Made by a program: the position numbers and the translations under genes. Below, in pieces: positions 12,340-58,968 of a stretch of DNA of 64,000 bases (its first letter is position 1; the number at the start of each line of letters is the position of its first letter). Location: the NCBI GenBank assembly GCA_016699425.1, contig CP064975.1, positions 1,149,369 to 1,213,368 of the forward strand. The letters run 5' to 3'. The notes under the pieces were generated by a model that saw nothing but the letters and a program-made list of their open reading frames with translations, did not search any database and was not told the origin of the DNA. The DNA comes from Candidatus Moraniibacteriota bacterium (lineage in GTDB: Bacteria; Patescibacteriota; Minisyncoccia; Moranbacterales; UBA1568).

Positions 12340-12373
12340 CATTATTCCGATAGAAAAATCGGAGCGTGCGTGT

Positions 12374-30211: not shown

Positions 30212-30261
30212 ATATTCTCGTACTGGCGTAAAATTACGGTTCTAACACCATTCACGATGCG

Positions 30262-30345: not shown

Positions 30346-30737
30346 CTAAAGTCATTTTTTCAAGTATAGCCACCTTTTTTATAGGAGGAGTTATTTTTCT
30401 TTGGAAAGAAAAACAATTGACTCTGGATCATCCTCAAGCAAGCGATAGTCGAGCAGAGACTTGTTTGGTGGAAACGATTAGAGAAAGGCCTGATATTGGA
30501 TACGATGCCTGGAAGGAAAGTCATCCAGAGAGAATGCAATTGGCTGGTTATTATTCAAGAGATTCAGAGGGAGTTTATTGGTATCATACGAAGATTATTG
30601 GTGCAGATCCAGGGACCTTTGACGTTTACAGTGATCGCTATGCTCACGATATGTCAAACGTCTACTACGCGGGGAATAGTGATTTATATACCATTATTGG
30701 AGCGGATACTGAGAGTTTCCAAGCAAAATGCTTTTAA
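30341..30737 (+). CDS. Secreted DKNYY-repeat-like protein; frameshift in a T-run near 30356-30361
   Basis: DKNYY-like repeats (GVYWYHTKIIGADPGTFDV..., NVYYAGNSDLYTIIGADTESF). The signal peptide MKLKSFF/SSIATFFIGGVIFLW is only recovered by a 1-nt shift in the homopolymer. Confidence 0.4.
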
Positions 30738-30777
30738 AAGTCTCAATTACCACCCACAAATTGATAAGTAATTCAAT

Positions 30778-31335: not shown

Positions 31336-31347
31336 AATAGTTAACAT

Positions 31348-33917: not shown

Positions 33918-34011
33918 CTGTTATAAGCCAATAGTGGGAACGCTTCTAGCTCGAACTTCAAATCTTGAGCGATCTGTTTCCAGTTCAGAGTTCTAAAGCT
34001 GTCCGCTAGGG

Positions 34012-39494: not shown

Positions 39495-39503
39495 TTGCAC
39501 CTT

Positions 39504-40526: not shown

Positions 40527-40536
40527 CTCGAGGACT

Positions 40537-40929
40537 ATGAAAATCATCTTTGGTTTGATCGTCGCCACCGCTGTCATTTTCCTTGGGTATTTGCTCCTGC
40601 AGATGGGCGGGGCGACTCCTCAGGATCAGTCCGTCTCGGTGAGCAATGTCAGTATCGTCGATGGGCAACAGATCGTGGAAATATCAGCCAAGGCTGGGTA
40701 TACTCCGCGCGTGAGTCAGGTGAAGGCTGGACTGCCGACGGTTCTGCGAGTGGATACCCAGGGCACGTTTGACTGCTCTTCTCAGATTCGTGTCCCGAGC
40801 CTGGATATCAGCCGTTCATTACCACCCTCGGGGGTCACGGATATCGCGCTCGGTACACTGGAGCCCGGGGTACTCCAGGGCACCTGCGGGATGGGTATGT
40901 ATCCCTTCGAGCTCAATGTCAAGAACTGA
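40537..40929 (+). CDS. Membrane-anchored cupredoxin-like copper-binding protein
   Basis: N-terminal TM. Cys...Cys-Gly-Met-Gly-Met C-terminus as in Cupredoxin_1-type proteins adjacent to copA. Confidence 0.45.
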   Translation: MKIIFGLIVATAVIFLGYLLLQMGGATPQDQSVSVSNVSIVDGQQIVEISAKAGYTPRVSQVKAGLPTVLRVDTQGTFDCSSQIRVPSLDISRSLPPSGVTDIALGTLEPGVLQGTCGMGMYPFELNVKN

Positions 40930-41060: not shown

Positions 41061-41315
41061 CTATGAGAGATGCTTGGAGACAAGCTTCGTCATCTCGAAC
41101 ATGTTCACCACGTCCTTGCCGCCGAAGACCGCCTTGAGGGCTTCGTCCGCATTGATATTGCGCTTGTTCTCCGGGTCTTGGAGATTCTTGCTCTTGATAT
41201 AGACCCAGAGCTGCTTCACCACTTCGGAACGGGGCATGGGCCCGGCACCTACGACTGCTGCGAGTTCGGCACTAATCTTCATCGGCTTCATGAACGCGGA
41301 ATTGCTCGTCGCCAT
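41061..41315 (-). CDS. SWIB/MDM2 domain protein
   Basis: ISAELAAVVG...RSEVVKQLWVYIKSKNLQDPENKRNINADEALKAVFG...VNMFEMTKLVSKHL. ATG at 41315 (the ORF track starts at GTG 41324). Confidence 0.7.
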   Translation of the reverse strand: MATSNSAFMKPMKISAELAAVVGAGPMPRSEVVKQLWVYIKSKNLQDPENKRNINADEALKAVFGGKDVVNMFEMTKLVSKHLS

Positions 41316-41435
41316 AAAATCCACTATTTAGGGGTTACGGGACCCATTATACACCTTTTCCAGGAAAAGCGATGCCCAGGCCTGTCTGGGTGGCTGTGTG
41401 GTAGAGTAAAGTCACTACCCTTAGCATCAACTATT

Positions 41436-42632
41436 ATGAGTGTCGAGGAACGGATTGTCATCAATGACATGGCGGGCGAGAGTCAGATGGACTATATCAT
41501 CCAAGAGGCGGCCCGGCGGGGAACATCAGATATTCATATCGATCCCTTGCCGAATGAAGTGCTCGTCCGCTTCCGTATCGACGGTGTGCTCCAGGAGGCG
41601 AAGCGTTTCCCTCGGGAGCATCTCGATCATGTTATCAATCAGCTCAAGGTACTTTCGAATCTCGAAATTGGGGCCGTCCGTCTTCCTGAGGACGGACATT
41701 TCTCTGCCCGACTGACCGATGATCACACCGTGTCCAACCGGGTGCTCGATGTAAGAGTCTCGATCTTCCCGAGCGTGAACGGGGCAGCTGCCGTGCTTCG
41801 GCTTCTCAATCGTTCCGATATGCTCATCTCATTGGATGAAATATTCGTCGATCCCGAGCTCCGGGCCAAGGTACGAGAGATGACGCTTTCGAGCTATGGC
41901 ATGGTACTCACGACCGGTCCAACGGGTTCGGGCAAGACCACCTCACTCTATGCGATGCTCATGGAGACAAACCGCCAGGAGCGCAATATCCTCACGCTCG
42001 AAGACCCGGTCGAGATGTATTTCGACGACATGCGTCAGAGTCAGATCCATCCGGAAATTGGCTTCTCGTTTTCCAAGGGAATGAAGAGTATCCTCCGTCA
42101 AGATCCAGACGTGATCATGATCGGCGAAATTCGGGATGCGGAAACTGCCGAGTATGCTGTCCAGGCATCGCTCACGGGCCGACTTGTCTATTCGACACTT
42201 CACGCGAACACCACGATCGGCGCGATTGCTCGGATGATCGATATGGACATCGAACGCGGACTCATCGCGTACGCCGTCCGGGGGATCATCACGCAGCGGC
42301 TCGTTCGCAAGATCTGCACGGCGTGTAGTGCGCCAGATCCCAATCCGCGGACCGAATTCCTCACCTTCCTCGGACTCGGTGGGATGGACATCGCATACCA
42401 GAGAGGTGCGGGCTGTGCGGCCTGCGACGGTACAGGGTATCATGGCCGCGCGGGTATCTTCGAGGTACTGACTTTTGATGACAACTTGCGGGCGATGATT
42501 GTCGACAAGGCATCGATGAGCGATCTCCAGGCATACGCAGTCCAGTCCGGGATGCGGACACTGCGTCAAAACGCGATCAATCTCGTCTCATCTGGCATCA
42601 CGACGGTCGAAGAGATCGTGCGTGTTGTTTAG
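41436..42632 (+). CDS. GspE/PilB-family secretion ATPase (second copy; core plus C-terminal zinc-binding domain, no long N-terminal domain)
   Basis: Walker A GPTGSGKTT, Asp/His boxes, CTAC...GCAAC tetracysteine. Start at ATG 41436; the ORF-track 5' extension overlaps the SWIB gene. Confidence 0.8.
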   Translation: MSVEERIVINDMAGESQMDYIIQEAARRGTSDIHIDPLPNEVLVRFRIDGVLQEAKRFPREHLDHVINQLKVLSNLEIGAVRLPEDGHFSARLTDDHTVSNRVLDVRVSIFPSVNGAAAVLRLLNRSDMLISLDEIFVDPELRAKVREMTLSSYGMVLTTGPTGSGKTTSLYAMLMETNRQERNILTLEDPVEMYFDDMRQSQIHPEIGFSFSKGMKSILRQDPDVIMIGEIRDAETAEYAVQASLTGRLVYSTLHANTTIGAIARMIDMDIERGLIAYAVRGIITQRLVRKICTACSAPDPNPRTEFLTFLGLGGMDIAYQRGAGCAACDGTGYHGRAGIFEVLTFDDNLRAMIVDKASMSDLQAYAVQSGMRTLRQNAINLVSSGITTVEEIVRVV

Positions 42633-42678
42633 TAGTGAGACTCTACGTTTTTGGCGCGTGCTAAAATAGGGGAGTCAT

Positions 42679-44040
42679 ATGGCTCTCATCCGACGTCGCA
42701 GCAAGCTGAAATGGGTCGCCCGGCTTCACTTCTGGGTCATGTTTTTTTCGTTTTTTCTGTACCTCGGTCTTGGCTTTGCACTCGGACATGAATTTCTCTA
42801 TCAGGATATTCGGAAGAAATTTTTCGTATTTGCCGATGATACGATCGTCGTGACAGCTATCGTTCCGGGCCCACCCGCGGTACCGGTCGTGACTGCGACA
42901 CCTGCTTGTGCGGCCTTGGTACCACGTGTCACCCTCGACTGGGCGGAGGATACTGGGACGGTCACCTGGGATATCGATCGTGATGGCTTGCCACTCTCGA
43001 CCGGACTCACCGTCTCTGGCTATACCGATATGGCTGTCGCGGCGAATACGAGCTATACCTATCAGGTGACGGCCTATGGCCCGATGTCTCCTGGCGTCGC
43101 GATTTCAGCGCTGGTTTCGGTGACGACGCTCGACTGCGCGAGTATCGCTCCGGTCACGGTCACGATTGAGACTCTGGGCGGGAAAAACGTCACGCCGGGG
43201 AACCGCGGAAATACGGATCTCTCCAAACGCCGGCCCAAGGTGACTGGGACGACCAATACCCCGTATGCCATCATCGATATCGTGGTGACCAATCCGACTA
43301 TCCGGGCTCGGATACTGGCCAATGCCAATGGGTATTTCGAATGGATTCCGCCAATCGGACTCGACACGGGAAACCATATTCTGAGCGTGACGGCCACTGA
43401 CCCAAACGATGCGAACCGGAGCGGCACGGACAGTCTCCTCTTTTGGACCAAGAATGTGAGTGGCCGAGCGGGAGGGAAAGGGGAGACGCCACCCATTTCG
43501 GTCGAACGGCACGACGCTTTCGATTTTGCGATCACCATTAGAAATCCTGAGAAAACACTCTTCCAAGAAGAAGCGCTCACTGTGGATATCGTCGCACGAT
43601 CGGGGGTCTTCCCCGAGGCCTCCATCGGCCAGTCAGTCCTGAATGATCCGACTCGGCGGGACGTGTTGCGGCTTGGGTCGGTTGACCCGAGTGGGGCAGC
43701 TGGGACGACAATCGAGTCGCAAATCCCGCTGTATCTCGAACCAGGCACGTATCGGGTGCGGGTGGACATCATGATTGATGGCGAGATCATCAGTCGCGAA
43801 GACGCATTTACTCTGAAAGGATTGCCACTCCTCACGGTCGCCGGCCGCGAGGTGAGCTATGCAGAAGTCGCGAGCTATATCGGGACGCTCTTTTTCCTCC
43901 TCCTGTTCCTTCTCTTCTTCTTTCTCCTGTTCTTCATTCGCGAATACTGGCTCTATCTCCATAGTCTGCGGGCGATTACCGAGCGGCAGCTGGCACGGAT
44001 CGGTTTCTTCGGGCCAAGAAAGGGGGTGACCCGGTCATGA
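42679..44040 (+). CDS. Membrane protein with Ig/FN3-like extracellular domains and a C-terminal TM
   Basis: N-terminal and C-terminal hydrophobic helices. Beta-sandwich-like repeats (YTYQVTAYG..., NGYFEWIPP...ILSVTATD). Confidence 0.45.
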   Translation: MALIRRRSKLKWVARLHFWVMFFSFFLYLGLGFALGHEFLYQDIRKKFFVFADDTIVVTAIVPGPPAVPVVTATPACAALVPRVTLDWAEDTGTVTWDIDRDGLPLSTGLTVSGYTDMAVAANTSYTYQVTAYGPMSPGVAISALVSVTTLDCASIAPVTVTIETLGGKNVTPGNRGNTDLSKRRPKVTGTTNTPYAIIDIVVTNPTIRARILANANGYFEWIPPIGLDTGNHILSVTATDPNDANRSGTDSLLFWTKNVSGRAGGKGETPPISVERHDAFDFAITIRNPEKTLFQEEALTVDIVARSGVFPEASIGQSVLNDPTRRDVLRLGSVDPSGAAGTTIESQIPLYLEPGTYRVRVDIMIDGEIISREDAFTLKGLPLLTVAGREVSYAEVASYIGTLFFLLLFLLFFFLLFFIREYWLYLHSLRAITERQLARIGFFGPRKGVTRS

Positions 44041-44372
44041 CAGATTTCCTCTTACTCTTTCTTTCATTTCTGACAGTGACCTCGCTCCTCTTGTCACTCG
44101 TGTTTGTCGTCGGTATCGTCTGGCGGGTGGAGCTGGAACTCGACTTGTCTTTCAAGTTCTTTTCCTTTGCGGTGATTTTCCTCCTCGCAGCCGAGGTACT
44201 CGACCTCTTGCCTGTGACACGGCTTGCACCATGGTGGTCAGTAGCGCTCCCCGTGGTGAAACTCTGCATCGCGGCGAATCTCCTCCTCGGACTGTTCTTC
44301 ATGCGCGACCTCATTCGTCGCATGGACGGAGAGAAAGAATCATCTGCGAGGGTCGTTCCAGAGCGGCGCTAG
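44037..44372 (+). CDS. Small integral membrane protein
   Basis: ATGA overlap with the upstream gene. Three predicted TM helices. Confidence 0.4.
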   Translation: MTDFLLLFLSFLTVTSLLLSLVFVVGIVWRVELELDLSFKFFSFAVIFLLAAEVLDLLPVTRLAPWWSVALPVVKLCIAANLLLGLFFMRDLIRRMDGEKESSARVVPERR

Positions 44373-44527
44373 GAACTCCTCCCTCAAACCCGTCCCTGAA
44401 TCAGAAACGCTGCAGAGTTTCTGGTGTCTGATTGTTTCGTCTTGCTTCAAGTCGGTGCGCTTGGTACCATGGTTGCTGTGGTGTGCTTCTGTCCGACGGG
44501 ACATTTTTTTATTGGTCCAGATTGCTT

Positions 44528-44926
44528 ATGCCTACTCAACAAGATCAGTCGAAGCGGGTACGCGTGAAACGGACGGGAATTGGACTTGGTCTTTTTGCTG
44601 CGGCTAATTTTAAACGACACGAAACCATCATCGAGTACATCGGCGAGCGGATACCGACGAGCGTCGGCGACGAGCGAGACAATCGCTATATTTTCAATGT
44701 GAGTTCACGCTTCGATATCGATGGCAGTGCGCGGCATAATACGGCGCGCTACACCAATCATTCGTGCCGTCCCAACTGTGATGCGATCAATCGGCGGGGC
44801 CGGATCTTCATCGTCGCCAGGAAACAGATCGCACTCGGCGAGGAAATCACCTTCCATTATGGTAAGGACCACTTCGAGGGGTATATCAAACCAGCTGGCT
44901 GTAAGTGTAAGAAATGTATCGCCTAG
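44528..44926 (+). CDS. SET-domain protein (putative protein-lysine methyltransferase)
   Basis: NHSCRPNC motif, post-SET Cys cluster (CKCKKC), FHYG. Confidence 0.8.
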   Translation: MPTQQDQSKRVRVKRTGIGLGLFAAANFKRHETIIEYIGERIPTSVGDERDNRYIFNVSSRFDIDGSARHNTARYTNHSCRPNCDAINRRGRIFIVARKQIALGEEITFHYGKDHFEGYIKPAGCKCKKCIA

Positions 44927-45873: not shown

Positions 45874-46656
45874 ATGTCTGACCGCCGGCTCTCAGTCATC
45901 ATCCCCACACTCAATGAGCGGGGGAATATCGAACCGCTCCTCCGGCGCCTGAGTGATTTTTTGACGCATCATCAGTATGTCTGGGAGGCGATTGTGGTTG
46001 ATGATCGATCAACCGATGGGACGTTTCAAAAATTAGAACGGTTGCAAGAGGAGGGTCTTCCTATCCGTCCGTTTCGAAAGATTGGTTGCCGAGGCAAGGC
46101 ATACTCGCTTCTCGAAGGATTTGAACGGGCGCAGTTTGATAACATCGCTATTTTGGACGCGGACCTCCAGTGTCCACCCGAGGCAATCGGTCCGATGTTT
46201 GAGTATCTTCTCTCGGGTACGGACGTTATCGTTGCGAATCGGAGCAATGCTGTTGGAAACCCATGCCGTCGAATGGCGAGCTGGATTTTTCAGGAAGTCT
46301 TCGCTCGGCGGTTGAATGGCCTTCAAGTAGATTCACAGTCAGGACTGAAGCTCTTCCGCCGCTCGGTGTTAGAGTCAGTGACGCTTGCTCCATCCCCGTG
46401 GACCTTTGACATGGAATTCCTTTTGAAGGCACAGCTCGCGGGGTATGCTGTGAGAGGGTATACGGTTGATTTCTCTGAACGGAACTCTGGCGAATCGAAG
46501 ATCAGTCTCTGGAGTGCTTCGGTCGAGATCGCGTGGAATGCGCTTTCCCTCTGGTATCAGCATCGGCTTCCGGTACTGGCACGTTCTGTGGGCGCCGGAC
46601 TTCTGGGAAAGGGGAGGCGGCTCACGGGACTGATCAGTAATCGTCGCCTGTTTTAA
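45874..46656 (+). CDS. GT2 polyprenyl-phosphate sugar synthase (DPM1/GtrB-like)
   Basis: LSVIIPTLNE...VVDDRSTDGT...ILDADLQ. Confidence 0.8.
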   Translation: MSDRRLSVIIPTLNERGNIEPLLRRLSDFLTHHQYVWEAIVVDDRSTDGTFQKLERLQEEGLPIRPFRKIGCRGKAYSLLEGFERAQFDNIAILDADLQCPPEAIGPMFEYLLSGTDVIVANRSNAVGNPCRRMASWIFQEVFARRLNGLQVDSQSGLKLFRRSVLESVTLAPSPWTFDMEFLLKAQLAGYAVRGYTVDFSERNSGESKISLWSASVEIAWNALSLWYQHRLPVLARSVGAGLLGKGRRLTGLISNRRLF

Positions 46657-46669
46657 GTAACATCTTTGT

Positions 46670-47095
46670 ATGTCCAATCAACAGCCACTCGTGCTCCCGA
46701 TCATCAACATTGCTCTTCCGAGGACGCTTATCCTCTACTTCTTCATTGGCTCGAGCGCAGCCCTCGTTGATGTGGTCGGGTTTTTCCTCCTGTTCAATAC
46801 CTATGGGATACCGGCAGTAGTTGCGACGGCAATTTCTGTTTCCCTCGCGACGATCTACTCATTTGTGCTCAACGCGAAATATAACTTTAAGGTCAGCGAT
46901 CGTCTGGGGATGCGTCTCGTCCTCTTCTCTCTGGTCAGCGGCGCTGGACTTCTCCTCTCAGCTCTCGCGCTGTATGTCGCGCATGATATGTACGGAATCA
47001 ACGGAAACATCGTGAAGATCGCCTCATTGCCGGTTATTTTTGTGGTGCAGTTCTTGTTGAACAAGCATATTTCATTTAAGTCGAATACTTTATGA
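46670..47095 (+). CDS. GtrA-family membrane protein
   Basis: About 140 aa, 4 TM, GtrA-like pattern. Confidence 0.7.
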   Translation: MSNQQPLVLPIINIALPRTLILYFFIGSSAALVDVVGFFLLFNTYGIPAVVATAISVSLATIYSFVLNAKYNFKVSDRLGMRLVLFSLVSGAGLLLSALALYVAHDMYGINGNIVKIASLPVIFVVQFLLNKHISFKSNTL

Positions 47096-48432
47096 ACGAG
47101 ACCGCTATGAAGAAATCAGTTGCTATCATCGGTGCTGGATATACTGGCCTCGTCGCTGCCTATCGCCTCGCCAAGGCTGGGCAGGCGGTTACGGTCTATG
47201 AACGAGAGTCGTATGTCGCCGGTCTCGTCTCAGGATTTTCTTTGGATGGGATTGCGATGGAGAAGATCTATCACTTTCTCTATAAGACCGATGCGGATAT
47301 CCTCGGCCTCCTCGAAGAGCTGGGCGTCCGAGAGAAACTCGTCTTCCATGATAGCTCCGTCTCGACGTACTATGATGGAAAACTGTATCCATTCATGACC
47401 CCCGTGGACATCCTGCGCTTTACCCCGCTTTCATTTTTGAATCGGATCCGTTTTGGTGTTGTTGGTCTGTATTTGCAATTTTTGACCCGCTGGGAGCCCT
47501 TGACCCGTGTTACAGCCTACGATTGGATGCTGAAATGGTCAGGCAAAGAAGTCATGGACATTATCTGGACCCCGCTGCTTAAGGGGAAGTTCTCGAAATA
47601 CTATGACAAGATTGCCATGTCTTGGCTTTGGTCACGAATCCGGGTTCGGGCACGATCCAAGGAAAAGGGTGATGTCGTGGAGAAGTTAGGTTATTTTACC
47701 GGCGGTTGGCACATTGTGGCCGATCGTTTGGTCGAAGAGATTGAGAAGCTTGGTGGGGAAGTCCGCACAGGCGTACAGATCGAATCCCTTCGCTCCATCC
47801 CTGAGTCGGGGAAGGTTGAGGTGATGATTGATGGTTCTCCGATTCTTCACGATACCGTGATCGCGACTATTCCGACCCATGTCTTTGGTCGTCTCGTTGA
47901 AAATGATCCGTTGGCGACAGCTGAATACAAGTCACAGCTCGCGAGCATCGACTACATCGGTGCCGTCGTCATGCCGTTTGTTTCAACAGAACGTATCACC
48001 TCATATTACTGGCACAACATCAACGATCCTCGCTGTCCGTTCCTCGTATTTCTCTCGCTTTCAGAGCTAGCCGGTTCGGAAAATTTTGGCGGTAAGCATG
48101 TGTATTACGTCGGTGCCTATGTTTCGCACGACCACCCCTATTTTTCTCTCGAGAAGGAGGCTATCATGGATGAATGGAAAGCCGGACTGAAGCTGATGTT
48201 TCCGGATTTCGATGCTTCGAAGATAACCGCCGCTGAGCTGTTCCGCTTCAAGAACGCACAGCATATTGTCGGAATGGGTTACAAGGAAAAGATGCCGGCG
48301 TATCAGACACCGCTTCCAGGCGTCTACCTCGCAAACTTTTCTCAGATCTACCCGGACGACCGTGGTACCAACTATGCGGTTCGTGACGGCAATGTGATTG
48401 CTGATATGGTATTGCGTAACCTGAACGCCTGA
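47092..48432 (+). CDS. FAD/NAD(P)-binding oxidoreductase (amine oxidase / desaturase-like)
   Basis: Rossmann GAGYTGL. ATGA overlap with gtrA. Confidence 0.65.
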   Translation: MNETAMKKSVAIIGAGYTGLVAAYRLAKAGQAVTVYERESYVAGLVSGFSLDGIAMEKIYHFLYKTDADILGLLEELGVREKLVFHDSSVSTYYDGKLYPFMTPVDILRFTPLSFLNRIRFGVVGLYLQFLTRWEPLTRVTAYDWMLKWSGKEVMDIIWTPLLKGKFSKYYDKIAMSWLWSRIRVRARSKEKGDVVEKLGYFTGGWHIVADRLVEEIEKLGGEVRTGVQIESLRSIPESGKVEVMIDGSPILHDTVIATIPTHVFGRLVENDPLATAEYKSQLASIDYIGAVVMPFVSTERITSYYWHNINDPRCPFLVFLSLSELAGSENFGGKHVYYVGAYVSHDHPYFSLEKEAIMDEWKAGLKLMFPDFDASKITAAELFRFKNAQHIVGMGYKEKMPAYQTPLPGVYLANFSQIYPDDRGTNYAVRDGNVIADMVLRNLNA

Positions 48433-48448
48433 GACAGCATTCTCACCT

Positions 48449-51274
48449 ATGCCCAAGCTTGACCTCACTATCCTCCTACCGACCTATAACGAAGCGGCCA
48501 ACATCGCTCCGTTGCTTCGGGCTGTCGCTCGCTCGCTTGAAGAGAGCGATGTGCGGTATGAAATCGTCTTTGTCGACGATAGTTCGGACATGACACCGGA
48601 TGTCATCACTCGGATGCGAGAGGTTTACAAGGATGTCCGGCTAATTCGTCGAGCACCCGAAGAACGAACAGGTCTCGCAACAGCGCTCATCGCAGGCTTC
48701 GCAGCGGCGAAGGGCGAATACATCCTCTGTATGGATTCCGATCTCCAACACCCACCCTATGCCATACCGGAGCTTATTGCGAAACTTCGCGAGACGGGCG
48801 CTGATGTGACCGTCGCGACGCGGTATGCTGCCGGCGGGAGCGCCGAGGGACTTGGTACGTTGTACCGTCGAGCCGTCTCCCACCTGTGTCGATTTGCGGC
48901 GTGGGCGATCATTCCGCAGACGCACAAGACCACCGACCCGGGGAGCGGCTTCTTTGTGTTTCGGAAATCTATTGTCGAGAATCTTAATTTTCAGGGCCTT
49001 CAAGGATTCAAGATCCTGATCGATATCCTCGCCCGGACCAAGAAGCTCCGAGTTTCTGAAGTTCCCTATACTTTCCGAAAGCGAATCAATAATGAAAGCA
49101 AGGCGACCGTCGAACAGGGGATCGCCTTCCTTCGGCACCTTGTTCTTTTGAAGTGGCAGAGTCTCGTGCCTGAGGCAACAGGTCCGAAAAGTATCGAAAG
49201 CGCTATCCCGGCGCGTCGAGAGCCCCGGAACTGGGGTCGCATCTCTCAGACGCTTTTGATCGACGGCGCTATCGCCCTCGCGATTGGTCTGGTGGGGTGG
49301 TACCTGGTTGGTTACTACGCCGCCTTCAATTATTTGTACACGGGCTATGAGGACTGGATCTACCATGCGTTCCGAGTGAAGTCGCTGCAGGACCATGGGC
49401 TGGTCGCCTGGGACCATATCTGGAGTAACGGTATCGGTTATTGGAAACTGTACCAGTATGTGGCGCACTACATCATGCTCGGCGTCGTCGAGCTCACGGG
49501 TCTCCCAATTACCAAGGTGCTGCTGCTTTCTCTCGTTGTTCTCTACATCGGTCTTCGGGTGGCATTGTACGGCATCCTCCGTCTCCTCGGCGCGAATCGG
49601 TTTTTTGCCGTGTTGCCAGTGATCGCTTCGTACACCATCGTCCAGGAGTGGGGTTCCATGCAGGATTACTCAATCTACATCGCTTTCATCGCCTTTCCCC
49701 TCCATCTCCTGCTTTGGATCATGGCTTTTCGTGATCTCAAGTGGATTTATGTCTTGGCGGCGGTCACCGGTGCTGTCTGGACTTTTCATCCCGTATTTGG
49801 TTTCAATGCCTCAATCCTGCTTGGACTCCTCGTTGTCTTTTCAAAACTGAAATCCGATTTCTCAAAAATCTTCCGGGTAGGCATCGTCTATTTCATCGCA
49901 GCGGCACCATTTTTAACCTCGTACTTTACGGCCGGTTACTTCTTCACTAACCCGCTCTTCAAATCGTACATCTACCTCTCGACATCGGTACTGGCTCCGT
50001 ACGGCGGCCTCAGTATGCTCTATTGGCTCCTTTTCGGGATTATCTGGCTTTTGGTTATCTGGCGCTCACAACTCGTCCCGACCTGGACCAAGGTGCTGCT
50101 GGTCTACGCGAGCGTTTATCTCGTACTCATTTACCTTGGACAGAAGGATTATCTTCCGAATTTCCTCGTCCAGTTCCAGTTCTCACGCGGCATCACAGCG
50201 GTCGCATTTGCTCTCGTCCTCGTTTTTGGTGTCGTGCTCCAGCGGACGCTCGGCGCGGTACAGGGACTTGGTATCAAGCTTGTCGCTACTGTTCTCATCG
50301 CTGCAGGCATCGTCCATGCTGTTGATATCGCTTCGCGTTACTACGTTTCACCGCCGGTCAATGAAATCCAGAATGCCGTTGCTGAGTATTTCACCGATCA
50401 TGACTTGCCGAAGGGCAGTGTCTTTACAGAAAACGTTTCTGAAGCAACCTACTTTGCTCCGGCTGGCGTACGGTACGTCACGTCATACAATGAGCATATG
50501 CAGCCGCATCCCTATTCGACGCGTCTTCGCGTTCTCATGAATAGTCGGCTCGGTTACACGGGTATTTCACAGGCCCATCTCCGGAACATCGAGAATTACG
50601 CCACCGTTCTTGGTATCGAATATCTCTTTTTGCCCGCAGCCTCACCGTTGGTCACGGGGCTGACTTCCAAGGACGGAGCAATGTTCGAGTTGGTTGCGCT
50701 TGAGAATAGCGAACCGCTGACCGACGCGATTGCTGTGCTCCGTAATACGTCGCCAATCATATCAGCCTTTGCTGTTTCGCGCTCGGAAATTTCTGACCGT
50801 CTCCTTAGTGATGAGCTTCCATTGCCAACGATTCATATTGCCTCCTACAAGCCGTGGGATGAACGGATTGCTGAGATGGCAGAGATCGTGCGTTCCTCGG
50901 CCATTGTGCCGATCGAAGTCGGATTTGTTCCGACCAATGTACTGGAGATTGGTGGCGAGTCATTTCCCAAGTTGGATACGATGAATGATCCAATCATCCT
51001 CGTCAATCAGAGCTATGATGCGAAATGGCAGGTAGTTTCTCCTCAGGCGGGCGCATGGTCTGTTCAGCCATCGACACTTCGGCTTATGGTGTTGGAAAAA
51101 TCGGGGAGTGTCCCGGTTCAGGCCTTTGAATTACGCAATGATTGGCCGTGGTGGTACTGGCCGGTGCAGTCCCTCGGGGTCGTGATGACTCTTGTGGCTG
51201 TGCTTTGGACTATGAAGACGCATGGTCTTATCCGAATTTCGTTCAGGAAACTCTCCCGCTATGTCAACAAATAA
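48449..51274 (+). CDS. Fusion of an N-terminal GT2 (DPM1/GtrB-like) domain to a large polytopic membrane domain with an extracytoplasmic C-terminal region (GT-C/GtrC-like)
   Basis: LTILLPTYNE...FVDDSSD...MDSDLQ followed by about 12 TM helices and a roughly 300-aa soluble tail. Confidence 0.7.
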   Translation: MPKLDLTILLPTYNEAANIAPLLRAVARSLEESDVRYEIVFVDDSSDMTPDVITRMREVYKDVRLIRRAPEERTGLATALIAGFAAAKGEYILCMDSDLQHPPYAIPELIAKLRETGADVTVATRYAAGGSAEGLGTLYRRAVSHLCRFAAWAIIPQTHKTTDPGSGFFVFRKSIVENLNFQGLQGFKILIDILARTKKLRVSEVPYTFRKRINNESKATVEQGIAFLRHLVLLKWQSLVPEATGPKSIESAIPARREPRNWGRISQTLLIDGAIALAIGLVGWYLVGYYAAFNYLYTGYEDWIYHAFRVKSLQDHGLVAWDHIWSNGIGYWKLYQYVAHYIMLGVVELTGLPITKVLLLSLVVLYIGLRVALYGILRLLGANRFFAVLPVIASYTIVQEWGSMQDYSIYIAFIAFPLHLLLWIMAFRDLKWIYVLAAVTGAVWTFHPVFGFNASILLGLLVVFSKLKSDFSKIFRVGIVYFIAAAPFLTSYFTAGYFFTNPLFKSYIYLSTSVLAPYGGLSMLYWLLFGIIWLLVIWRSQLVPTWTKVLLVYASVYLVLIYLGQKDYLPNFLVQFQFSRGITAVAFALVLVFGVVLQRTLGAVQGLGIKLVATVLIAAGIVHAVDIASRYYVSPPVNEIQNAVAEYFTDHDLPKGSVFTENVSEATYFAPAGVRYVTSYNEHMQPHPYSTRLRVLMNSRLGYTGISQAHLRNIENYATVLGIEYLFLPAASPLVTGLTSKDGAMFELVALENSEPLTDAIAVLRNTSPIISAFAVSRSEISDRLLSDELPLPTIHIASYKPWDERIAEMAEIVRSSAIVPIEVGFVPTNVLEIGGESFPKLDTMNDPIILVNQSYDAKWQVVSPQAGAWSVQPSTLRLMVLEKSGSVPVQAFELRNDWPWWYWPVQSLGVVMTLVAVLWTMKTHGLIRISFRKLSRYVNK

Positions 51275-52787
51275 CACTCAAAAACCAGAACGCTTTCTCG
51301 CCTCGACACGGATCGATAATCTGACGATTGTCTTTCTGCTCTCGGCACCGTTTGTCGTAGTCTTCTACGCTTCTTTCGTCTTCAATCCAGCCAATGCCGA
51401 TCACCTCGTGCTCTATGCTTTCCAGGTGTTGGCGGATGCGATCAGTATCACGGTACTCGCCGGACTCTGGGTGACCGTCCTTCTCGATGTCGTTGTTGAG
51501 TGGCATCATCGTTTGAAGCGTGTCTGGGATGCCTCATTTCTCGAGACGAGCCCAACGATAGACTGTATCGTAACGACATATAATGAGCCGATTCCAGTGA
51601 TCCGCAGGACGCTCAAGGCCGTCATCTCGATGGAGTATCCCCATACGACGTATGCCTTTGACGACGGACAATCGGCTGAAGTTGCAGCACTCGCGAAGGA
51701 GCTTGGAGTCCGCTACGTGACGCGCGAGAGCCGTCAGCATGCGAAAGCGGGGAATTTGAACAATGGCCTTCAGCAATGCGAAGGAGACTTTTTTGCGGTC
51801 TTTGATGCCGATCAGGTGCCAAAGCCAGACTTTATCACGACACTCCTCCCCTATATGGCCAATGCTCGTGTCGCGATGGTTCAATCGCCGCAGCACTACG
51901 CGAATACCGAACACTTTATCGCCTCTGGCGCAGCCCAGGCGCAGGAAGTTTTTTACCGCTATGTCTGCCCGTCAAAGAACATCTCGAATTCAGCCTTTTG
52001 CGTTGGGACGAACATGATTTTCCGTCGGGCGGCGATCGATAGCATTGGTGGAATCGCGTTCAATAAATCAGAGGACATCTGGACCTCGCTCAAGCTTCAT
52101 GAGGGCGGCTGGCAGACTATTTTCGTGAACCGTATCCTCGCTATCGGACAGGCGCCTGATACAGTCGTCTCGTATTTCAAGCAGCAGCTCCGCTGGGCCC
52201 GTGGTGGACTCGAGATGTTGTTCTATCATAACCCACTGCGTTCTACTCGACTTCAGCTCGACCAGCGTATCCAATACTTCATGTCGAATTCATTCTTCTT
52301 GGTCGGGATTTCGATTTTCGTCTACCTCATTTTTCCGCTCCTCTATCTCCTCTTCTCCATCAAGCCGCTCGAGTCGCTATCGCCATTTACCTGGCTCGTC
52401 CACTACGTTCCGTTCTTCCTCCTCTATTACTCCCTCACGTGGCTGTTGACTGGCCGACTCCATCTCTCGACCCTCGCGACTGCGCTTGCGACATTCTACC
52501 CGTACCTCATGGCACTCCTCTCTGTATTCTTTGACAAGGAGCATGAGTGGACCGCGACGACGTCGAAGAAAAGCTCCCAGGACTACTTTATGAAGTGGGC
52601 GTGGCCGCATGCTTTTATCATGTTCCTCACGCCGCTCGCGCTTATAGTTGGTTGGTATAATAATTACGATTTCTGGTCGACACTCTTCTATTCTGTCTGG
52701 TCTGTCGTGAACATGCTCCTCCTCTATGTGTTTCTCACCGGTGAAGGTCGCACCGGGAGCGGTCCGCGAAAAGAATCAGAAGCCTAA
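51261..52787 (+). CDS. Processive GT2 beta-glycan synthase (cellulose/curdlan synthase-like, CESA family)
   Basis: D, DxD, TED-like and QQLRWARGG (QxxRW) motifs flanked by TM helices. Confidence 0.8.
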   Translation: MSTNNTQKPERFLASTRIDNLTIVFLLSAPFVVVFYASFVFNPANADHLVLYAFQVLADAISITVLAGLWVTVLLDVVVEWHHRLKRVWDASFLETSPTIDCIVTTYNEPIPVIRRTLKAVISMEYPHTTYAFDDGQSAEVAALAKELGVRYVTRESRQHAKAGNLNNGLQQCEGDFFAVFDADQVPKPDFITTLLPYMANARVAMVQSPQHYANTEHFIASGAAQAQEVFYRYVCPSKNISNSAFCVGTNMIFRRAAIDSIGGIAFNKSEDIWTSLKLHEGGWQTIFVNRILAIGQAPDTVVSYFKQQLRWARGGLEMLFYHNPLRSTRLQLDQRIQYFMSNSFFLVGISIFVYLIFPLLYLLFSIKPLESLSPFTWLVHYVPFFLLYYSLTWLLTGRLHLSTLATALATFYPYLMALLSVFFDKEHEWTATTSKKSSQDYFMKWAWPHAFIMFLTPLALIVGWYNNYDFWSTLFYSVWSVVNMLLLYVFLTGEGRTGSGPRKESEA

Positions 52788-52816
52788 TCACGATTTCTCT
52801 CTAATCTCTCACCTCT

Positions 52817-53710
52817 ATGTCGCAATCAACCAATCGCTCAATCAAGACGCTTGTCGTCAACGGCCTCTACCTCGGTGCTGCTTTTCTGTTTGCGTTTATG
52901 ATCGCGACACAGGCACTGATGCACAAGATCAATAACTACGAACTCAACAAGAGCCTTATTTTCCTTACGGTAAAGAAGGAGCGAGTGGATGTTTCAACCA
53001 CTGTTGCTGGCCGGATTGAAGAGATTCTGGTCCGACAGGGGTCATCGGTAAAAGAAGGTGAAATCGTTGCTCGATTGAAAGATGAGGGGAGAGTGTTAAA
53101 AATTGCCGCACTACGTCCAGTCGCTGGGGCAAACCTCTCCGCTCGTACCGAGCTCGAGCTGCTTTTGGCACAGGAGGATGAGTTCGAGATTCGTGCTCCG
53201 CGCTCTGGTGTCGTAGAGAAGGTCCATTCGACCAAGGGTACTTCCGTTATCGAGGGGTCTGTCCTACTCACGGTGTATGCCAATGATGATCTTGAACTCG
53301 TCGGCACTATTCGCCCAGAGCAATATAACCTCATCGACAAGCACCGGAGCATCAGTGTCTTTAACCCGCGGCTCGGCCAGGCCTTCACTGCTTCGTTCCA
53401 GGGTATCACTGGTGTCCGTGACGATCTCTTGCCAGATGGGACCATCGCACCAGTCCAGAATGACGCGGTAAAGAAAAACGAGATGTACGAAATTCGGTTC
53501 TCGCTCAATGAAAAGGAAGAAGGAGGATCCTTTATTGAAGGAGAGAAGCTCGAGGTCATCTCGGAAAACGCTGATGTCGAGCAGTTGAAGCCCCTCTATC
53601 GTCTGGCGCGGATGTGGAACAGCCTGATCCTTGGGACAGATTTCGACGCGCTCCGTAAATACAATGAAGGAAATAATAATGACATTCCCAAGACTGAAGA
53701 ATCTCAGTAA
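52817..53710 (+). CDS. HlyD/membrane-fusion-like protein
   Basis: N-terminal TM. Biotinyl-lipoyl-like hairpin EIRAPRSGVVEKVHSTKGTSVIEGSVLLTV. Confidence 0.5.
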   Translation: MSQSTNRSIKTLVVNGLYLGAAFLFAFMIATQALMHKINNYELNKSLIFLTVKKERVDVSTTVAGRIEEILVRQGSSVKEGEIVARLKDEGRVLKIAALRPVAGANLSARTELELLLAQEDEFEIRAPRSGVVEKVHSTKGTSVIEGSVLLTVYANDDLELVGTIRPEQYNLIDKHRSISVFNPRLGQAFTASFQGITGVRDDLLPDGTIAPVQNDAVKKNEMYEIRFSLNEKEEGGSFIEGEKLEVISENADVEQLKPLYRLARMWNSLILGTDFDALRKYNEGNNNDIPKTEESQ

Positions 53711-55652
53711 GTACATCCTCGGGGCGGCCGTTATCGGCAGTTCCGTTCTTTGGTTTGTCTGGTCACAGAAGTCGGCTGATCCGATAGTCACTCCAAAACA
53801 CGAAGAAGTAACCGTTTATACCCCGAAAGAGCGAAGCGTCGGGGAGCGGACCAACACCTGGTTTTCCAGCCTGTACCGACGTTTCCCGTCCGCACCACTT
53901 TTTGTCTTCCCAGGATCCTATCAGTTTACGGAAAGCGGGCTATCCATCAGTGATTCGCAGCTTGTCCCGACTGAAAAAACGCTGTACGGGAGTTTCAACC
54001 CGGTTTGTACAGTGAATGGCACCATCTCGGTCAAGAACGTCACGGTGGAACGCTATGGCGACTGGGATGTTTCCGTCGCGGTTGAGCCATCAGTGGGGGA
54101 TTCTTGGAGAGCGCAGCTCGTCCAGGGTTCGCCGATCGTGAATATCTCGGACTTTGTTTCCGATATGAAACCAGCCTGTGGAGATGGTGTCCAGCCGTCA
54201 AGATATCGCCAGGACGCGATTCTCGTAAAGCGCGGCGACCAGCCGGTACTGCTTATCCAGGCGATGGATGCCGAAGCAACAGAGGGTATCGTTCTCCGGT
54301 CTGAATCTGACCGGTACCGAGTGATCCAGCTCCCAATCTCTACCGACCAATCACTCGATTTCTTCCTCGATCTCGCTTGGGATCGAGTTCTGGATACCCA
54401 GTACGACTGGTCCGAAGATCAGAGTACTGAACGTATCAGACTCGTCACGCTCACCGAGAGTGGTCAGTCGTCTCTCACCACCGTCTGGCCACATCACCGT
54501 CTGGCGGGTGTGAGTATGGCATCATTTGGGAGCTATTCGACGGTGTATGGTCGTCTTGATCTCGTCCGTTCCGATCGGATCGAATTCCGCCAGTCACGAC
54601 CCGAGCTCCCGATCGGATTCAAGCCGGTAAGCGACGAGGTTGAACGGGCTAAAATCGAGGAATCTCTCCGCACGGACAGCCTGCGGTATCAAACGGAGAC
54701 ACCTCCATCCGGAGTGTATTTCCGTGGCGCCTGGTTTGGCGGCTTAGCGAGTCTCATCCTCTTGGCGGATGCGTACGGGCTTGAGGATGAGCGATCGAAA
54801 CTGCTTGATCTACTCGAGACACATTTCCGTCCCGCGCTCGTTGACTTTGCGTATGATGATGCAAAGAAAATGCTCATTGCTGCGAAGAATTCGGAATTCG
54901 GCAACGAAAAGGGGAATGATCACCATTTTCATTACGGCTACTATCTCCGCTCGGGTGCCGTGCTCGTCCAGTATCGTCCAGAGATCCGGGGAGAGCTCGT
55001 GCCGATTCTGAACGAAATGGCGCTCGATATCGCGAATACCGATCGATCATCTGATCGTTATCCGTTCCTGCGCCACTTCTCGCCGTACGCCGGTCATTCG
55101 TGGGCGGATGGGGAAGCGCTCTTTCAGGATGGCAACAATCAAGAATCAAGCTCGGAGGCGTTGAACGCTTGGTATGCCCTCTCGCTTTGGGGGAGTGTGA
55201 CCGGCCAAGAAGTCTATGCTACTACGGGGCGGAATCTCTACGCGCACGAACTCCTCGGCATCCGGTCATATTGGTTTGGCGAAGGGAATGCGTTTCCGTC
55301 TGAATACCGTCACCCGATCGTTTCACTCGTCTGGGGTGGAAAGCGTGACTACGCGACCTGGTTCAGCGCTGACCCGATGCATATCCAGGGGATACAGTGG
55401 CTGCCGATGACACCGGCATCGACCTACCTCGGCCGACTCCCGGGCCATGAGGCACGGATGCGTGATCTGGGATCGAGTGGAGCTCTTGCAGCGACTCATG
55501 AGTGGGGCGACCTCTATATCGCGTATCTGTCGTATCATGATCCGGCGGAAGCGCTCCGGAATCTCGAGTTGGCCGTCCCACGCCAGGCAATCAAATCAAC
55601 CGCACTCCTCCGGCACATTGTCTACACGAACTCGTCCTCAGGTAATCGCTGA
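53664..55652 (+). CDS. Glycoside hydrolase family 81 endo-beta-1,3-glucanase-like protein with a signal anchor
   Basis: NDHHFHYGYY motif and the surrounding C-terminal catalytic region characteristic of GH81. Confidence 0.65.
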   Translation: MKEIIMTFPRLKNLSKYILGAAVIGSSVLWFVWSQKSADPIVTPKHEEVTVYTPKERSVGERTNTWFSSLYRRFPSAPLFVFPGSYQFTESGLSISDSQLVPTEKTLYGSFNPVCTVNGTISVKNVTVERYGDWDVSVAVEPSVGDSWRAQLVQGSPIVNISDFVSDMKPACGDGVQPSRYRQDAILVKRGDQPVLLIQAMDAEATEGIVLRSESDRYRVIQLPISTDQSLDFFLDLAWDRVLDTQYDWSEDQSTERIRLVTLTESGQSSLTTVWPHHRLAGVSMASFGSYSTVYGRLDLVRSDRIEFRQSRPELPIGFKPVSDEVERAKIEESLRTDSLRYQTETPPSGVYFRGAWFGGLASLILLADAYGLEDERSKLLDLLETHFRPALVDFAYDDAKKMLIAAKNSEFGNEKGNDHHFHYGYYLRSGAVLVQYRPEIRGELVPILNEMALDIANTDRSSDRYPFLRHFSPYAGHSWADGEALFQDGNNQESSSEALNAWYALSLWGSVTGQEVYATTGRNLYAHELLGIRSYWFGEGNAFPSEYRHPIVSLVWGGKRDYATWFSADPMHIQGIQWLPMTPASTYLGRLPGHEARMRDLGSSGALAATHEWGDLYIAYLSYHDPAEALRNLELAVPRQAIKSTALLRHIVYTNSSSGNR

Positions 55653-55674: not shown

Positions 55675-55705
55675 AATAAAAAAATCAATCCGCCAACTGG
55701 CGGAT
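55675..55705. terminator. Bidirectional Rho-independent terminator
   Basis: ATCAATCCGCC-AACT-GGCGGATTGAT with A-run and T-run flanks. Confidence 0.7.
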
Positions 55706-55733
55706 TGATTTTTTAGTGAGGTGGGGGACTCTC

Positions 55734-55913
55734 TTACAAGAGTCCGACCTGGCCGAAGAAAGTGAGCGTGAGGACCGGTACGAGAGCGAGGAGGAACGCC
55801 ATCGACGTTTCCTGACTTTGCGCTTGTTCCTGTGCGACTTTGGCACAGTTCTCACACGCGGGTCCGCTGCACGGAGCCTCCATCAGGGGCTCATTGCCTT
55901 TCATCTCCATAGG
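55734..55913 (-). CDS. Possible 59-aa Cys-rich small membrane protein
   Basis: MEMKGNEPLMEAPCSGPACENCAKVAQ... plus a C-terminal TM. Below the ORF-track length cutoff. Confidence 0.25.
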   Translation of the reverse strand, partial: PMEMKGNEPLMEAPCSGPACENCAKVAQEQAQSQETSMAFLLALVPVLTLTFFGQVGLL

Positions 55914-57178: not shown

Positions 57179-58968
57179 ATGGAGACACGCAACGTCGCAA
57201 TTATCGCGCACGTCGACCACGGCAAGACAACTCTGACTGACGCTCTCATGCGCCAGACGGGAGTCGCGATGGCCGTCGGTGCCTCGATGGATTCGAATGC
57301 GCTCGAACAGGAACGCGGCATCACTATCTACGCCAAGAACTGTTCATTGTTCTATAAGAACACCAAGATCAATATCGTCGATACGCCTGGTCACGCGGAT
57401 TTCGGTTCGGAAGTAGAGCGCGTGCTTCGCTCCATCGATGATGTCATCCTCGTCGTCGATGCTCAGGAGGGTCCGATGCCGCAGACCCGCTTTGTCTTGA
57501 AGAAATCACTCGAGCTGGGTCTCCGACCGATCGTCGTCATCAACAAGATCGATAAACCAGCCGCTCGTCCAGACGAGGTGAAGGAGATGGTCTATGAACT
57601 CTTCCTCGACCTCGGAGCGGACGATCATCAGCTTGATTTCCCGGTGGTCTATGCCATCGCCCGCGAAGCGGTGCTATGAAGGAGCTGGCTGATCCGCGCA
57701 CCGATCTCTCGCCGCTCCTCGATACCATCCTCGAGCGTGTTCTTCCTGCTAGCCACGATGTCGATAAGCCGCTCCGTGCTCAGCCGTTCAATCTCGGCTA
57801 TGACAATTTCGTCGGTCGCCTGGCCATCGCTCGCGTCTATGATGGTCGTCTCGCAGTGAACGATTCGGTCATGCTCCGGAACGTCAATGGCAAACAGTCG
57901 TCCGGTCGCATTGTGAAACTCTTCACTTTTCGTGGAATGGAGCGCGTCGAGAGTCAGTCTGTCGAAGCGGGGGACATCGTCATGATTGCCGGATTGCCGG
58001 ATGTCGAGATCGGGGACACGATCACGACCTATGCGAACGCCGAGCTTCTTCCAGCCATCGCGATCGATGAGCCAACCATTTCGCTTGACTTCATGGTAAA
58101 TGACTCTCCTTTTGCTGGCCGCGAAGGAAAATTTGTTACGAATAAGCAGATTCGCGAACGTCTCGAAAAAGAGCTCGAGATCAATGTCGGTCTCCGGATC
58201 GAATTCGCTGATGACCACTACAAAGTCTACGGTCGCGGTGAGCTCCACATCTCTATTTTGCTCGAAAACATGCGCCGTGAGGGCTACGAAGTCCAGGTGT
58301 CACAGCCACAGGTCATCATCAAGGATGTCGACGGCGTGAAGTCAGAACCGTTTGAGGAAGTGACCGTCGAGTGCCCGATGGAAGTGACTGGCCCTGTCAT
58401 TGAAAAGATGGGCAAGCGCAAGGGTATCATGATGGATATGCGTGAAGGCTCGGGTGGGTACCAGCGACTGCTCTTCGAAATCCCAACGCGTGGCCTCCTC
58501 GGCTATCGTGGTGAGTTCATGGTGGATACACGCGGTGAGGGGACACTGTATACTCGTGTTCTCGGCTTTCGGCAGTACGCGGGCACGATTGATCACCGCG
58601 ATGTCGGCGCCAGGATTTCGATGGAGACGGGCAAGGCAGCTGCGTTCTCGCTCGACAATCTCCAGACGCGTGGTACGCTCTATATCGGCCATGCGGCTGA
58701 AGTATACGAGGGGATGGTCATCGGCAACGCCACCAAGGGCGAAGATATGTCGGTGAACCCGACCAAAGGTAAAGCGATGAGCAATATGCGCTCATCGGGG
58801 GCCGATGAAGCGATCAAGCTGACCCCGCCGTGGGAGCTGAATATCGAACGCGGCCTGGAAGTTATGAACGCGGACGAGTACCTTGAGATCACTCCGCTCT
58901 CGGTTCGGCTCCGCAAGCAATTTCTGAAAGAGACTGACAGAATACGGGCGACTCGAAGTAAAAAATAA
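57179..58968 (+). pseudogene. typA: Translational GTPase TypA/BipA, split into two ORFs (57179..57679 and 57676..58968) by a frameshift at an ATGA junction
   Basis: G domain ([18 protein letters not shown]) in ORF 1; domains II-V in ORF 2. The junction falls in the loop that is contiguous in BipA homologs. Confidence 0.7.

Follow-up and report, generated by a model that had tools for sequence, protein, structure and literature searches.

A Moranbacteria operon with a processive glycosyltransferase, an HlyD-like protein and a GH81 enzyme: a candidate beta-1,3-glucan system for cells without an outer membrane

Several of the described bacterial polysaccharide systems couple a processive family 2 glycosyltransferase (GT2) to a partner resembling the membrane-fusion proteins (MFPs) of the HlyD type. 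BgsB pairs with BgsA and TolC in rhizobia (PMC9495663, PMC13438883), an HlyD-like/TolC-like pair accompanies BcsA and BcsZ homologues in cyanobacteria (PMC8892547), and Alg44, whose extracytoplasmic part resembles the MexA/HlyD adaptors, pairs with Alg8 (PMC8892547). Here we analyse a locus of seven genes (g1 to g7) of a Candidatus Moraniibacteriota bacterium, from the Candidate Phyla Radiation (CPR, or Patescibacteria), located in a window of 64,000 nucleotides of contig CP064975.1 and combining such a synthase (g5) and such an MFP-like protein (g6) with a glycoside hydrolase of family GH81 (g7) and a membrane glycosyltransferase of the GT-C type (within g4). CPR cells are generally held to be devoid of an outer membrane, and the reading that we favour, with somewhat more confidence than doubt, is that the operon encodes a synthase-dependent secretion system for a beta-1,3-glucan adapted to cells of this kind.

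The BgsBA pair resembles this locus in that the gene of a PilZ-less, CESA-like synthase adjoins that of an HlyD-family protein, for the synthase-dependent production of a beta-glucan. However, the MFP gene comes first in BgsBA and the synthase gene comes first here, BgsB works with TolC in a diderm cell (PMC13438883) whereas the host of g6 has no outer membrane, and the BgsBA operon contains neither a hydrolase nor a GT-C gene, while the Moranbacteria operon has both. The Bcs systems also encode together a processive GT2, an extracytoplasmic partner and a cognate endoglucanase (E. coli bcsABZC and the cyanobacterial variant, PMC8892547), although their hydrolase belongs to GH8 instead of GH81, neither BcsB, BcsC nor PilZ is found here, the acceptor-site motif differs and the Moranbacteria host is monoderm. 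As a precedent for an MFP-like co-polymerase, the GT2 synthase Alg8 needs a single-pass, MFP-like membrane protein (PMC8892547), but Alg44 carries a cytoplasmic PilZ domain and acts in a diderm together with AlgK and AlgE, and both the polymer and the lyase are different. The Agrobacterium CrdASC system is similar, as far as its description goes, in its linear beta-1,3-glucan (which for the present locus we infer) and its PilZ-less CESA-like GT2; it differs in its diderm host and in having CrdA and CrdC, described neither as HlyD-like nor as GH81 (PMC9495663). Finally, the GtrA/GtrB/GtrC, CsbB/GtcA/YfhO, ArnC/ArnT and PpgS/Rv3632/Rv3779 systems share with this locus, as far as its predicted functions go, a GT2 making a polyprenyl-phosphate sugar, a small GtrA-family membrane protein and a GT-C enzyme decorating an existing polymer outside the membrane. 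Unlike them, the locus has GT2 and GT-C in one chain, an additional GT2 and an FAD oxidoreductase, and its GT-C is coupled to a processive glucan synthase and not to O-antigen, teichoic acid or arabinogalactan.

The strongest argument for the proposed function comes from comparative genomics. GH81 relatives were scanned in one genome per species, and the best 80 loci (given L numbers here, as are some further loci) were kept and searched with the proteins of the window. The synthase g5 finds a match in 33 of these 80 loci and, wherever the synthase gene precedes the GH81 gene on the same strand, an HlyD-like open reading frame (ORF) lies between them, as shown by an iterative search that started from g6 (27 of 27 loci); Pfam also identifies the intervening ORFs of Leifsonia and Ktedonobacteraceae as HlyD-like. 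Within the CPR, this triad occurs in Moranbacteria, Levybacteria and two metagenome-assembled genomes (MAGs) labelled Gammaproteobacteria; outside it, in one MAG of Ktedonobacteraceae (Chloroflexota) and in about 20 actinobacterial genera, including Cellulomonas, Microbacterium, Leifsonia, Microlunatus, Nakamurella, Isoptericola, Mycetocola and Propionicimonas. Protein identities in these loci go as low as about 30-40% (about 30% in the case of GH81, 36% in that of the synthase), and the genes on either side of the triad bear no relation to one another. Such conservation across phyla means that the association of the genes goes far beyond chance, and since the order is kept while identities are low and flanks differ, the triad is a functional module, conserved in bacteria that have no classical outer membrane. 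Among the same 80 loci, those of Verrucomicrobiota, Planctomycetota, Pseudomonadota and Paenibacillus gave no synthase match. The suggestion of the first-pass annotation that a synthase accompanied by its own endo-beta-1,3-glucanase makes a curdlan-like product thus gains strong comparative support from all 27 loci, those of Cellulomonas included, with the linkage itself deduced from the pairing.

Some of the taxonomic labels of these third-party-annotation (TPA) MAGs look unreliable. L001-L003 are labelled 'Bdellovibrionales', though NCBI calls identical or near-identical proteins Moraniibacteriota, and of the two 'Gammaproteobacteria' (L006 and L007), L006 encodes a sortase.

The seven genes lie on the + strand and occupy positions 45874-55652 of the window (Table 1), in the order and at the coordinates that the first-pass annotation had given; its family assignments, including the GT2::GT-C fusion and GH81, were likewise all upheld by Pfam, NCBIfam, PDB and fold matches. 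The encoded proteins are 100% identical to GenBank QQR78647 to QQR78653, whose genes belong to a 1,217,328-bp contig of a MAG. With starts supported by homologues, the spacings from g1 to g7 are +13, -4, +16, -14, +29 and -32 nucleotides, and a free stretch of 126 nucleotides precedes g1. This tight packing with overlaps, together with the gap on the 5' side and a terminator on the 3' side, makes the arrangement a single operon.

Table 1. Features of the operon and its 3' border, in positions of the window (aa, amino acids; TM, transmembrane)
Feature	Position	Strand	Description
g1	45874-46656	+	260 aa; soluble DPM1/GtrB-like GT2; PF00535, 7.8e-26
g2	46670-47095	+	141 aa; GtrA_DPMS_TM (PF04138), 8.4e-18; four-helix membrane protein by hydropathy
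g3	47092-48432	+	446 aa; FAD oxidoreductase; Amino_oxidase, 9.4e-25
g4, whole	48449-51274	+	941 aa; DPMS-like GT2 fused to GT-C
g4, N-terminal domain	48449-49165	+	residues 1-239; cytoplasmic DPMS-like GT2; PF00535, 1.2e-29
g4, C-terminal domain	49220-51274	+	residues ~258-941; predicted GT-C membrane glycosyltransferase, large extracytoplasmic domain, final TM helix
g5	51261-52787	+	508 aa; CESA-like processive GT2; ORF opens at 51222, start set by homologues
g6	52817-53710	+	297 aa; Biotin_lipoyl 2.2e-10, HlyD_3 1.4e-9; N-terminal TM helix
g7	53679-55652	+	657 aa; predicted GH81 endo-beta-1,3-glucanase; ORF opens at 53631, start set by homologues
Bidirectional intrinsic terminator hairpin	55679-55714	.	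strong; 16-bp stem between A-run and T-run; 3' of the last stop

The product of g7, which GenBank calls merely 'hypothetical protein IPJ68_06310', matches PF17652 (Glyco_hydro81C) with 157.4 bits against a cut-off of 25.6 (E 7.7e-46), while PF03639 was not detected in it by the Pfam search. Its residues 57-634 align with residues 50-663 of BH0236 (2e-45), and 6FOP is matched at 7e-58. D430, E505 and E509, which correspond to the catalytic residues of GH81 structures, are invariant in 30 homologues of 31-93% identity and stand in the motifs NDHHFHYGY and DGNNQES(S/T)SE. Since the N-terminus is a signal-anchor (hydrophobic residues 27-44), the catalytic domain should be located outside the membrane, and g7 is a membrane-anchored, extracytoplasmic GH81 with its active-site residues intact. 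Characterised GH81 enzymes are beta-1,3-glucanases.

Does such an enzyme necessarily act on a polymer made by its own cell? It might instead be a co-transcribed enzyme for feeding on, or attacking, the beta-1,3-glucan of fungi, algae or a host, with g5 making cellulose or some other polymer without 1,3 bonds. There are many stand-alone, presumably catabolic GH81s in Verrucomicrobiota, Planctomycetota, Proteobacteria and Paenibacillus, an episymbiotic life is common among CPR bacteria, and g5 matches the BcsA structures well: its residues 95-491 align at 6e-48 (residues 125-557 of 5EJ1), from the catalytic domain through the C-terminal membrane helices. Nevertheless, we regard this explanation as very improbable, because a fixed synthase-MFP-GH81 order in 27 of 27 loci over three phyla would not be expected for an unrelated enzyme, the reading frames overlap in the window and the GH81 is membrane-anchored rather than secreted. 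As for cellulose, g5 remains under the CelA/BcsA equivalog cut-offs (TIGR03030, 246.7 vs 699.1 bits, 3.7e-73; PRK11498, 195 vs 992), and neither Pfam nor NCBIfam revealed a BcsB homologue among the operon proteins. An own hydrolase for an own polymer also has a parallel in a Levybacteria MAG (JACDET010000007.1, L004, positions 1524-15294), where three synthase-hydrolase pairs stand side by side: a GT2 with a PMT_2(GT-C)::GH5 fusion, a GT-C/GT2/HlyD-like/GH81 set, and a CESA-like GT2 with a GH26. This arrangement fits the rule of the cognate hydrolase and suggests, as far as gene content can tell, that the cell makes several beta-glycans and has a separate hydrolase for each.

Regarding the synthase, g5 carries the motifs HAKAGN, FDADQ (DAD), SED and QQLRW in alignment with BcsA and BgsA, and its hydropathy agrees with a membrane channel region; no PilZ domain was matched in Pfam or NCBIfam. 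It is therefore best described as a processive GT2 of the BcsA/BgsA type that carries a membrane channel within the same chain. It is 31% identical to BgsA of S. meliloti (8e-66), and in a plasmid collection it matched BgsA-type synthases (1e-53 to 1e-57) better than BcsA-type ones (1e-42 to 1e-48), with NodC and PgaC far weaker. The matches in that collection were relatives of BgsA, BcsA, NodC and PgaC, and none of CrdS was found; a 'Curdlan synthase' of R. leguminosarum CB782 was not taken as a proxy for CrdS, as it is preceded by a 'hemolysin D' gene and apparently belongs to a BgsBA-type pair. In a crude neighbour-joining tree without support values, the GH81-linked synthases of three phyla group together and apart from BgsA, from an HlyD-linked synthase of Bradyrhizobium and from E. 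coli BcsA. They have in common the motif AFCVGTN(M/V)xFRR, where BcsA has FFCGSCAV and BgsA FCCGSCSI, SED(I/V)WT, where the others have TEDxxT, and QQxRWAxG. The positions of these motifs line the acceptor site in BcsA structures, and a family-specific signature at that site fits a linkage specificity of its own.

What could this specificity be, if not the pure 1,3 linkage? The product might be a mixed-linkage (1,3;1,4)-beta-glucan, or a glucan with occasional 1,3 bonds that the GH81 cuts, a possibility that deserves mention since no characterised synthase encoded beside an HlyD-like gene is closer to g5 than BgsA (loci L081, L082 and L086), BgsA is thought to derive from CrdS-type enzymes (PMC10374906), and the JGI annotation of homologous GH81s reads 'endo-1,3(4)-beta-glucanase'. 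We find it improbable, as BgsA falls outside the clade of the GH81-linked synthases and differs from them at the acceptor-site motif (FCCGSCS vs AFCVGTN), g5 lacks the C-terminal extension of BgsA, to which the literature ascribes binding of cyclic di-GMP, and is 156 aa shorter (508 vs 664 aa), the match between g6 and BgsB is confined to a lipoyl motif, the characterised GH81s are beta-1,3-glucanases, and Cellulomonas, which bears the triad, makes curdlan. As a separate observation, pairs of the BgsBA kind seem to move between rhizobia; on the Bradyrhizobium plasmid pBb38S5a (L086, 2601-5776), a pair of an HlyD-family adaptor and a 'cellulose synthase' is flanked by insertion sequences and followed by a cache-domain protein.

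The partner of the synthase, g6, scores above the cut-offs of Biotin_lipoyl (40.7 bits) and HlyD_3 (39 bits) and below that of TIGR01730 (47.9 bits, 8.9e-13, vs 94.9), and BSH_RND matches are found in its homologues. Its layout comprises a TM helix (residues 9-33), a lipoyl (barrel-sandwich) domain divided into two halves, and a beta-barrel. The two lipoyl halves are separated by ~25-35 residues in all 17 aligned homologues, and the long alpha-helical hairpin is absent; BgsB, of 410 aa, has a long insert there (presumably the hairpin), whereas g6, of 297 aa, has ~30 aa, and the match between both proteins covers 29 residues of the lipoyl domain and nothing more. By these features g6 is a short, membrane-anchored, hairpin-less MFP-like protein. 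It cannot be a TolC adaptor, because its CPR host has no outer membrane, and an MFP-like partner in monoderm cells must have a task other than the link to TolC. The combination of GH81 with an HlyD-like partner had been put forward as undescribed in the first-pass annotation. This does not apply to the HlyD-like partner of a synthase, for which precedents exist in BgsBA, in cyanobacterial cellulose synthesis and in Alg44, but it does apply to the pairing with GH81: for neither the GH81 triad nor its coupling to a GT-C was a description found in the searchable open-access literature. What would be new, then, is the short form of the MFP-like protein, the monoderm setting, GH81 as the cognate hydrolase and, in the CPR, a dedicated GT-C partner.

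This GT-C partner is part of g4, a protein labelled by NCBI as polyprenol monophosphomannose synthase. Its N-terminal domain is much closer to the DPMS of Pyrococcus (5MLZ, 1e-40) than to GtrB (1.4e-11), with DPMS, ArnC and GtrB as the top Foldseek matches in the PDB, and is probably a polyprenyl-phosphate hexose synthase, with mannose as the likely hexose. For residues 240-941 there is no Pfam match and hence no named GT-C family. An AlphaFold2 (AF2) model built with 40 homologues has a mean pLDDT (predicted local distance difference test) of 82, the membrane part being mostly >90 per 10-residue block, and in a Foldseek search of the PDB with this model the C-terminal ~680 aa matched AftD (8.5e-6), DPY19 (2.5e-5), AftA (7.6e-5) and AglB/PglB (~1e-3). 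The probability assigned to the GT-C fold (AftD) is 1.00, with TM-scores of 0.26-0.44 that are low because the query is multi-domain. In GT-C enzymes the catalytic acid sits just after the first TM helix, where the first extracytoplasmic loop begins; in g4 the motif YTGYEDW directly follows TM1 (262-292), D302 and W303 are invariant (in sets of 40 and 15 homologues), and D302 is the putative catalytic residue. A profile of the membrane domain retrieved only 164 representatives in 1.84 billion proteins, and distant relatives of the C-terminal domain touch PTPS_related, DUF6541 and YfhO, mostly below the cut-offs (two DUF6541 matches are above). The designation as a GT2::GT-C fusion is therefore right at the level of the fold, and the GT-C part makes up a small family for which Pfam has no model.

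The homologues of this domain in more distant lineages are stand-alone proteins of ~660 aa, and the fusion to a GT2 is found only at identities of at least about 47%. In all the related CPR loci that were examined, with identities as low as 23%, their gene directly precedes that of the synthase: three distant homologues (33%, 31% and 23% identical) were located on their contigs, and each was directly upstream of a synthase and an MFP, with the GH81 gene downstream in L084 and upstream in L085 (as in L010). A hidden Markov model (HMM) of the GT-C domain, run against six-frame translations of all 80 GH81 loci, gave matches in CPR loci only, and two long Leifsonia ORFs upstream of the triad, probably wrong-frame artefacts of high GC content, showed no match to the g4 profile with hhalign.

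Accompanying g4 are the three genes at the 5' end of the operon. In the PDB, g1 matches DPMS (5MLZ, 2.3e-22), GtrB (1.6e-16) and ArnC (7.7e-15), being a candidate polyprenyl-phosphate hexose synthase. Next to it, g2 is a candidate flippase, or else the detached membrane domain of a DPMS-type enzyme. A Gtr-type pair of a GtrB/DPM1-like GT2 and a GtrA-family protein is thus present in the operon. The third gene, g3, is a clear member of NF005560/PRK07233 (440 bits, cut-off 252), and its best PDB matches are PPOX (1SEZ, 2.9e-12) and a phytoene desaturase (5MOG, 4e-6), which place its predicted product in the protoporphyrinogen-oxidase/phytoene-desaturase/amine-oxidase superfamily. A DprE1-like role was rejected for g3, as that enzyme belongs to another flavoenzyme superfamily and no partner reductase is present, and a role like that of UDP-galactopyranose mutase is weakly possible at most (3HDQ, E 0.007; no GLF match in Pfam). 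As to conservation, no orthologue of g1 was found in the sister Moranbacteria loci L002 and L003 (in L006, a g1-like GT2 is located 3' of the GH81 gene), while g2 is conserved in both, as is g3 with 55% identity, so that the conservation of GtrA and oxidoreductase is limited to the closest Moranbacteria. The fourth fixed partner in the CPR is consequently the GT-C protein and not the whole Gtr module: the Gtr-like module that had been proposed for this glucan locus is there as regards its components, but the conserved companion of the CPR synthases is the GT-C alone.

Could g1-g4 then constitute a separate glycosylation system, for instance for protein O-mannosylation or lipoglycan assembly, merely co-located with the triad? 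Actinobacterial polyprenol-phosphate-mannose synthases feed protein O-mannosylation and lipomannan synthesis, and it is to the dolichol/polyprenol-phosphate-mannose synthases that the N-terminal domain of g4 is closest; furthermore, the actinobacterial triads have no detectable GT-C homologue, and g1, g2 and g3 are not conserved beyond the subclade of Moranbacteria. We hold this to be possible but doubtful, given the invariable position of the GT-C gene before the CPR synthases and the tiny size of the GT-C family, which argues for a dedicated partner.

Returning to a beta-1,3-glucan secretion system, its parts could work together as follows. The synthase g5 would polymerise UDP-glucose at the cytoplasmic face and thread the chain outwards, with g6 as an obligatory guide or co-polymerase, a part played elsewhere by Alg44, BgsB or BcsB, and with g7 as the cognate hydrolase which, like BcsZ for cellulose, would clear, trim, release or recycle the polymer. 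If g7 is the cognate GH81, the product should contain beta-1,3-glucosidic bonds and would most simply be a curdlan-like (1->3)-beta-D-glucan. Inside the cell, g1 and the N-terminal domain of g4 would make a polyprenyl-phosphate-hexose (probably of mannose and/or glucose), which g2 would help to present outside, and the GT-C domain of g4 would then move the lipid-linked sugar onto the emerging glucan or its anchor. Because of its resemblance to PPOX and phytoene desaturase, g3 may modify the polyprenyl carrier or the lipid-linked sugar.

A number of points weigh against this scheme, or at least against some of its parts. BgsA, which is the nearest of the characterised synthases linked to an MFP, produces a mixed 1,3;1,4 glucan, linkage specificity is not readable from GT2 sequences, and the tree that sets the GH81-linked synthases apart is of the crude kind stated above. 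The architecture of g6 is drawn from Pfam matches and the alignment, its single-sequence model being unusable (pLDDT 38.8). In one CPR locus (L083), GT-C, synthase and MFP are kept with no GH81 nearby, and the lack of a detectable GT-C homologue in the actinobacterial triads also counts here. Finally, what the GT-C domain uses as its acceptor and what g3 does can only be guessed.

The actinobacterial branch of the triad provides a link to a known product. Cellulomonas flavigena is a curdlan producer that breaks the polymer down when starved, the responsible genes and the route of re-use having been left open (PMC3544764, PMC3035266). The genus encodes many GT2s, two per genome being 35-39% identical to Agrobacterium CrdS (PMC3544764), and the table of the genome paper lists two GH81 per sequenced Cellulomonas genome (PMC3544764, PMC3035266). 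Four Cellulomonas loci of our set carry the triad. A genus that makes curdlan, has two CrdS-like GT2s and two GH81s and carries the triad turns the latter, by its gene content, into an obvious candidate for a Gram-positive curdlan system, with testable genes for curdlan production and re-use in Cellulomonas and other Gram-positives. In the widest form of this idea, the CPR, many Actinobacteria and the Ktedonobacteria would build a surface layer of beta-1,3-glucan by a four-part machine not recognised before that is the basis of Gram-positive curdlan, the MFP-like protein being an obligatory co-polymerase with no partner in an outer membrane and, in the CPR, a dedicated GT-C branching or anchoring the nascent glucan with polyprenyl-phosphate sugars. 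We put this forward as a speculation that is more likely wrong than right by a wide measure; if true, it would mean a fungal-like, branched glucan in bacteria.

At a more modest level, the rule of 'synthase + co-polymerase + cognate hydrolase' would be extended to GH81 and to cells without an outer membrane, and a surface glucan, possibly decorated by a GT-C, is indicated for the CPR, whose envelopes are almost uncharacterised and whose genomes of 1.2 Mb rarely retain a needless locus of 10 kb. Curdlan is used industrially, so that new synthases, along with a trimming enzyme to match, may also be of practical value.

The remaining observations concern the neighbourhood of the operon. On its 5' side, a copper-handling cluster (37209-40929) comprises a P-type ATPase with HMA, an HMA-DsbD_2 membrane protein and a cupredoxin, and is followed (41070-44926) by an ATPase of the type IV pilus/type II secretion system kind, two ORFs without Pfam matches and a SET-domain protein; SET and RluA genes are also located upstream of the glucan operon in L002, where the position is kept. 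On the 3' side, a 58-aa ORF on the - strand (55734-55910), with a Cys-rich N-terminus (CSGPACENC) and a hydrophobic C-terminal helix, has the operon terminator on one side and, on the other, a good -35/-10 match (56032-56004, - strand). A TypA/BipA translational GTPase (57179-58968) is split by a 1-nucleotide frameshift near 57670 with respect to the intact gene of L002, so that one ORF of 166 aa and another of 430 aa lie in different frames, reflecting either an assembly error or a pseudogene. Further away, a stretch at ~30000-34000 with a GC content of 0.40 vs about 0.55 may be a horizontally acquired island, its genes encoding a Ham1-like NTPase and an ABC transporter ATPase with an ABC-2 permease, with a peptidase S51 nearby, and a nearly domain-less ORF of 3131 aa (12374-21769), with a weak match to Laminin_G_2, may be a CPR surface or adhesion protein.

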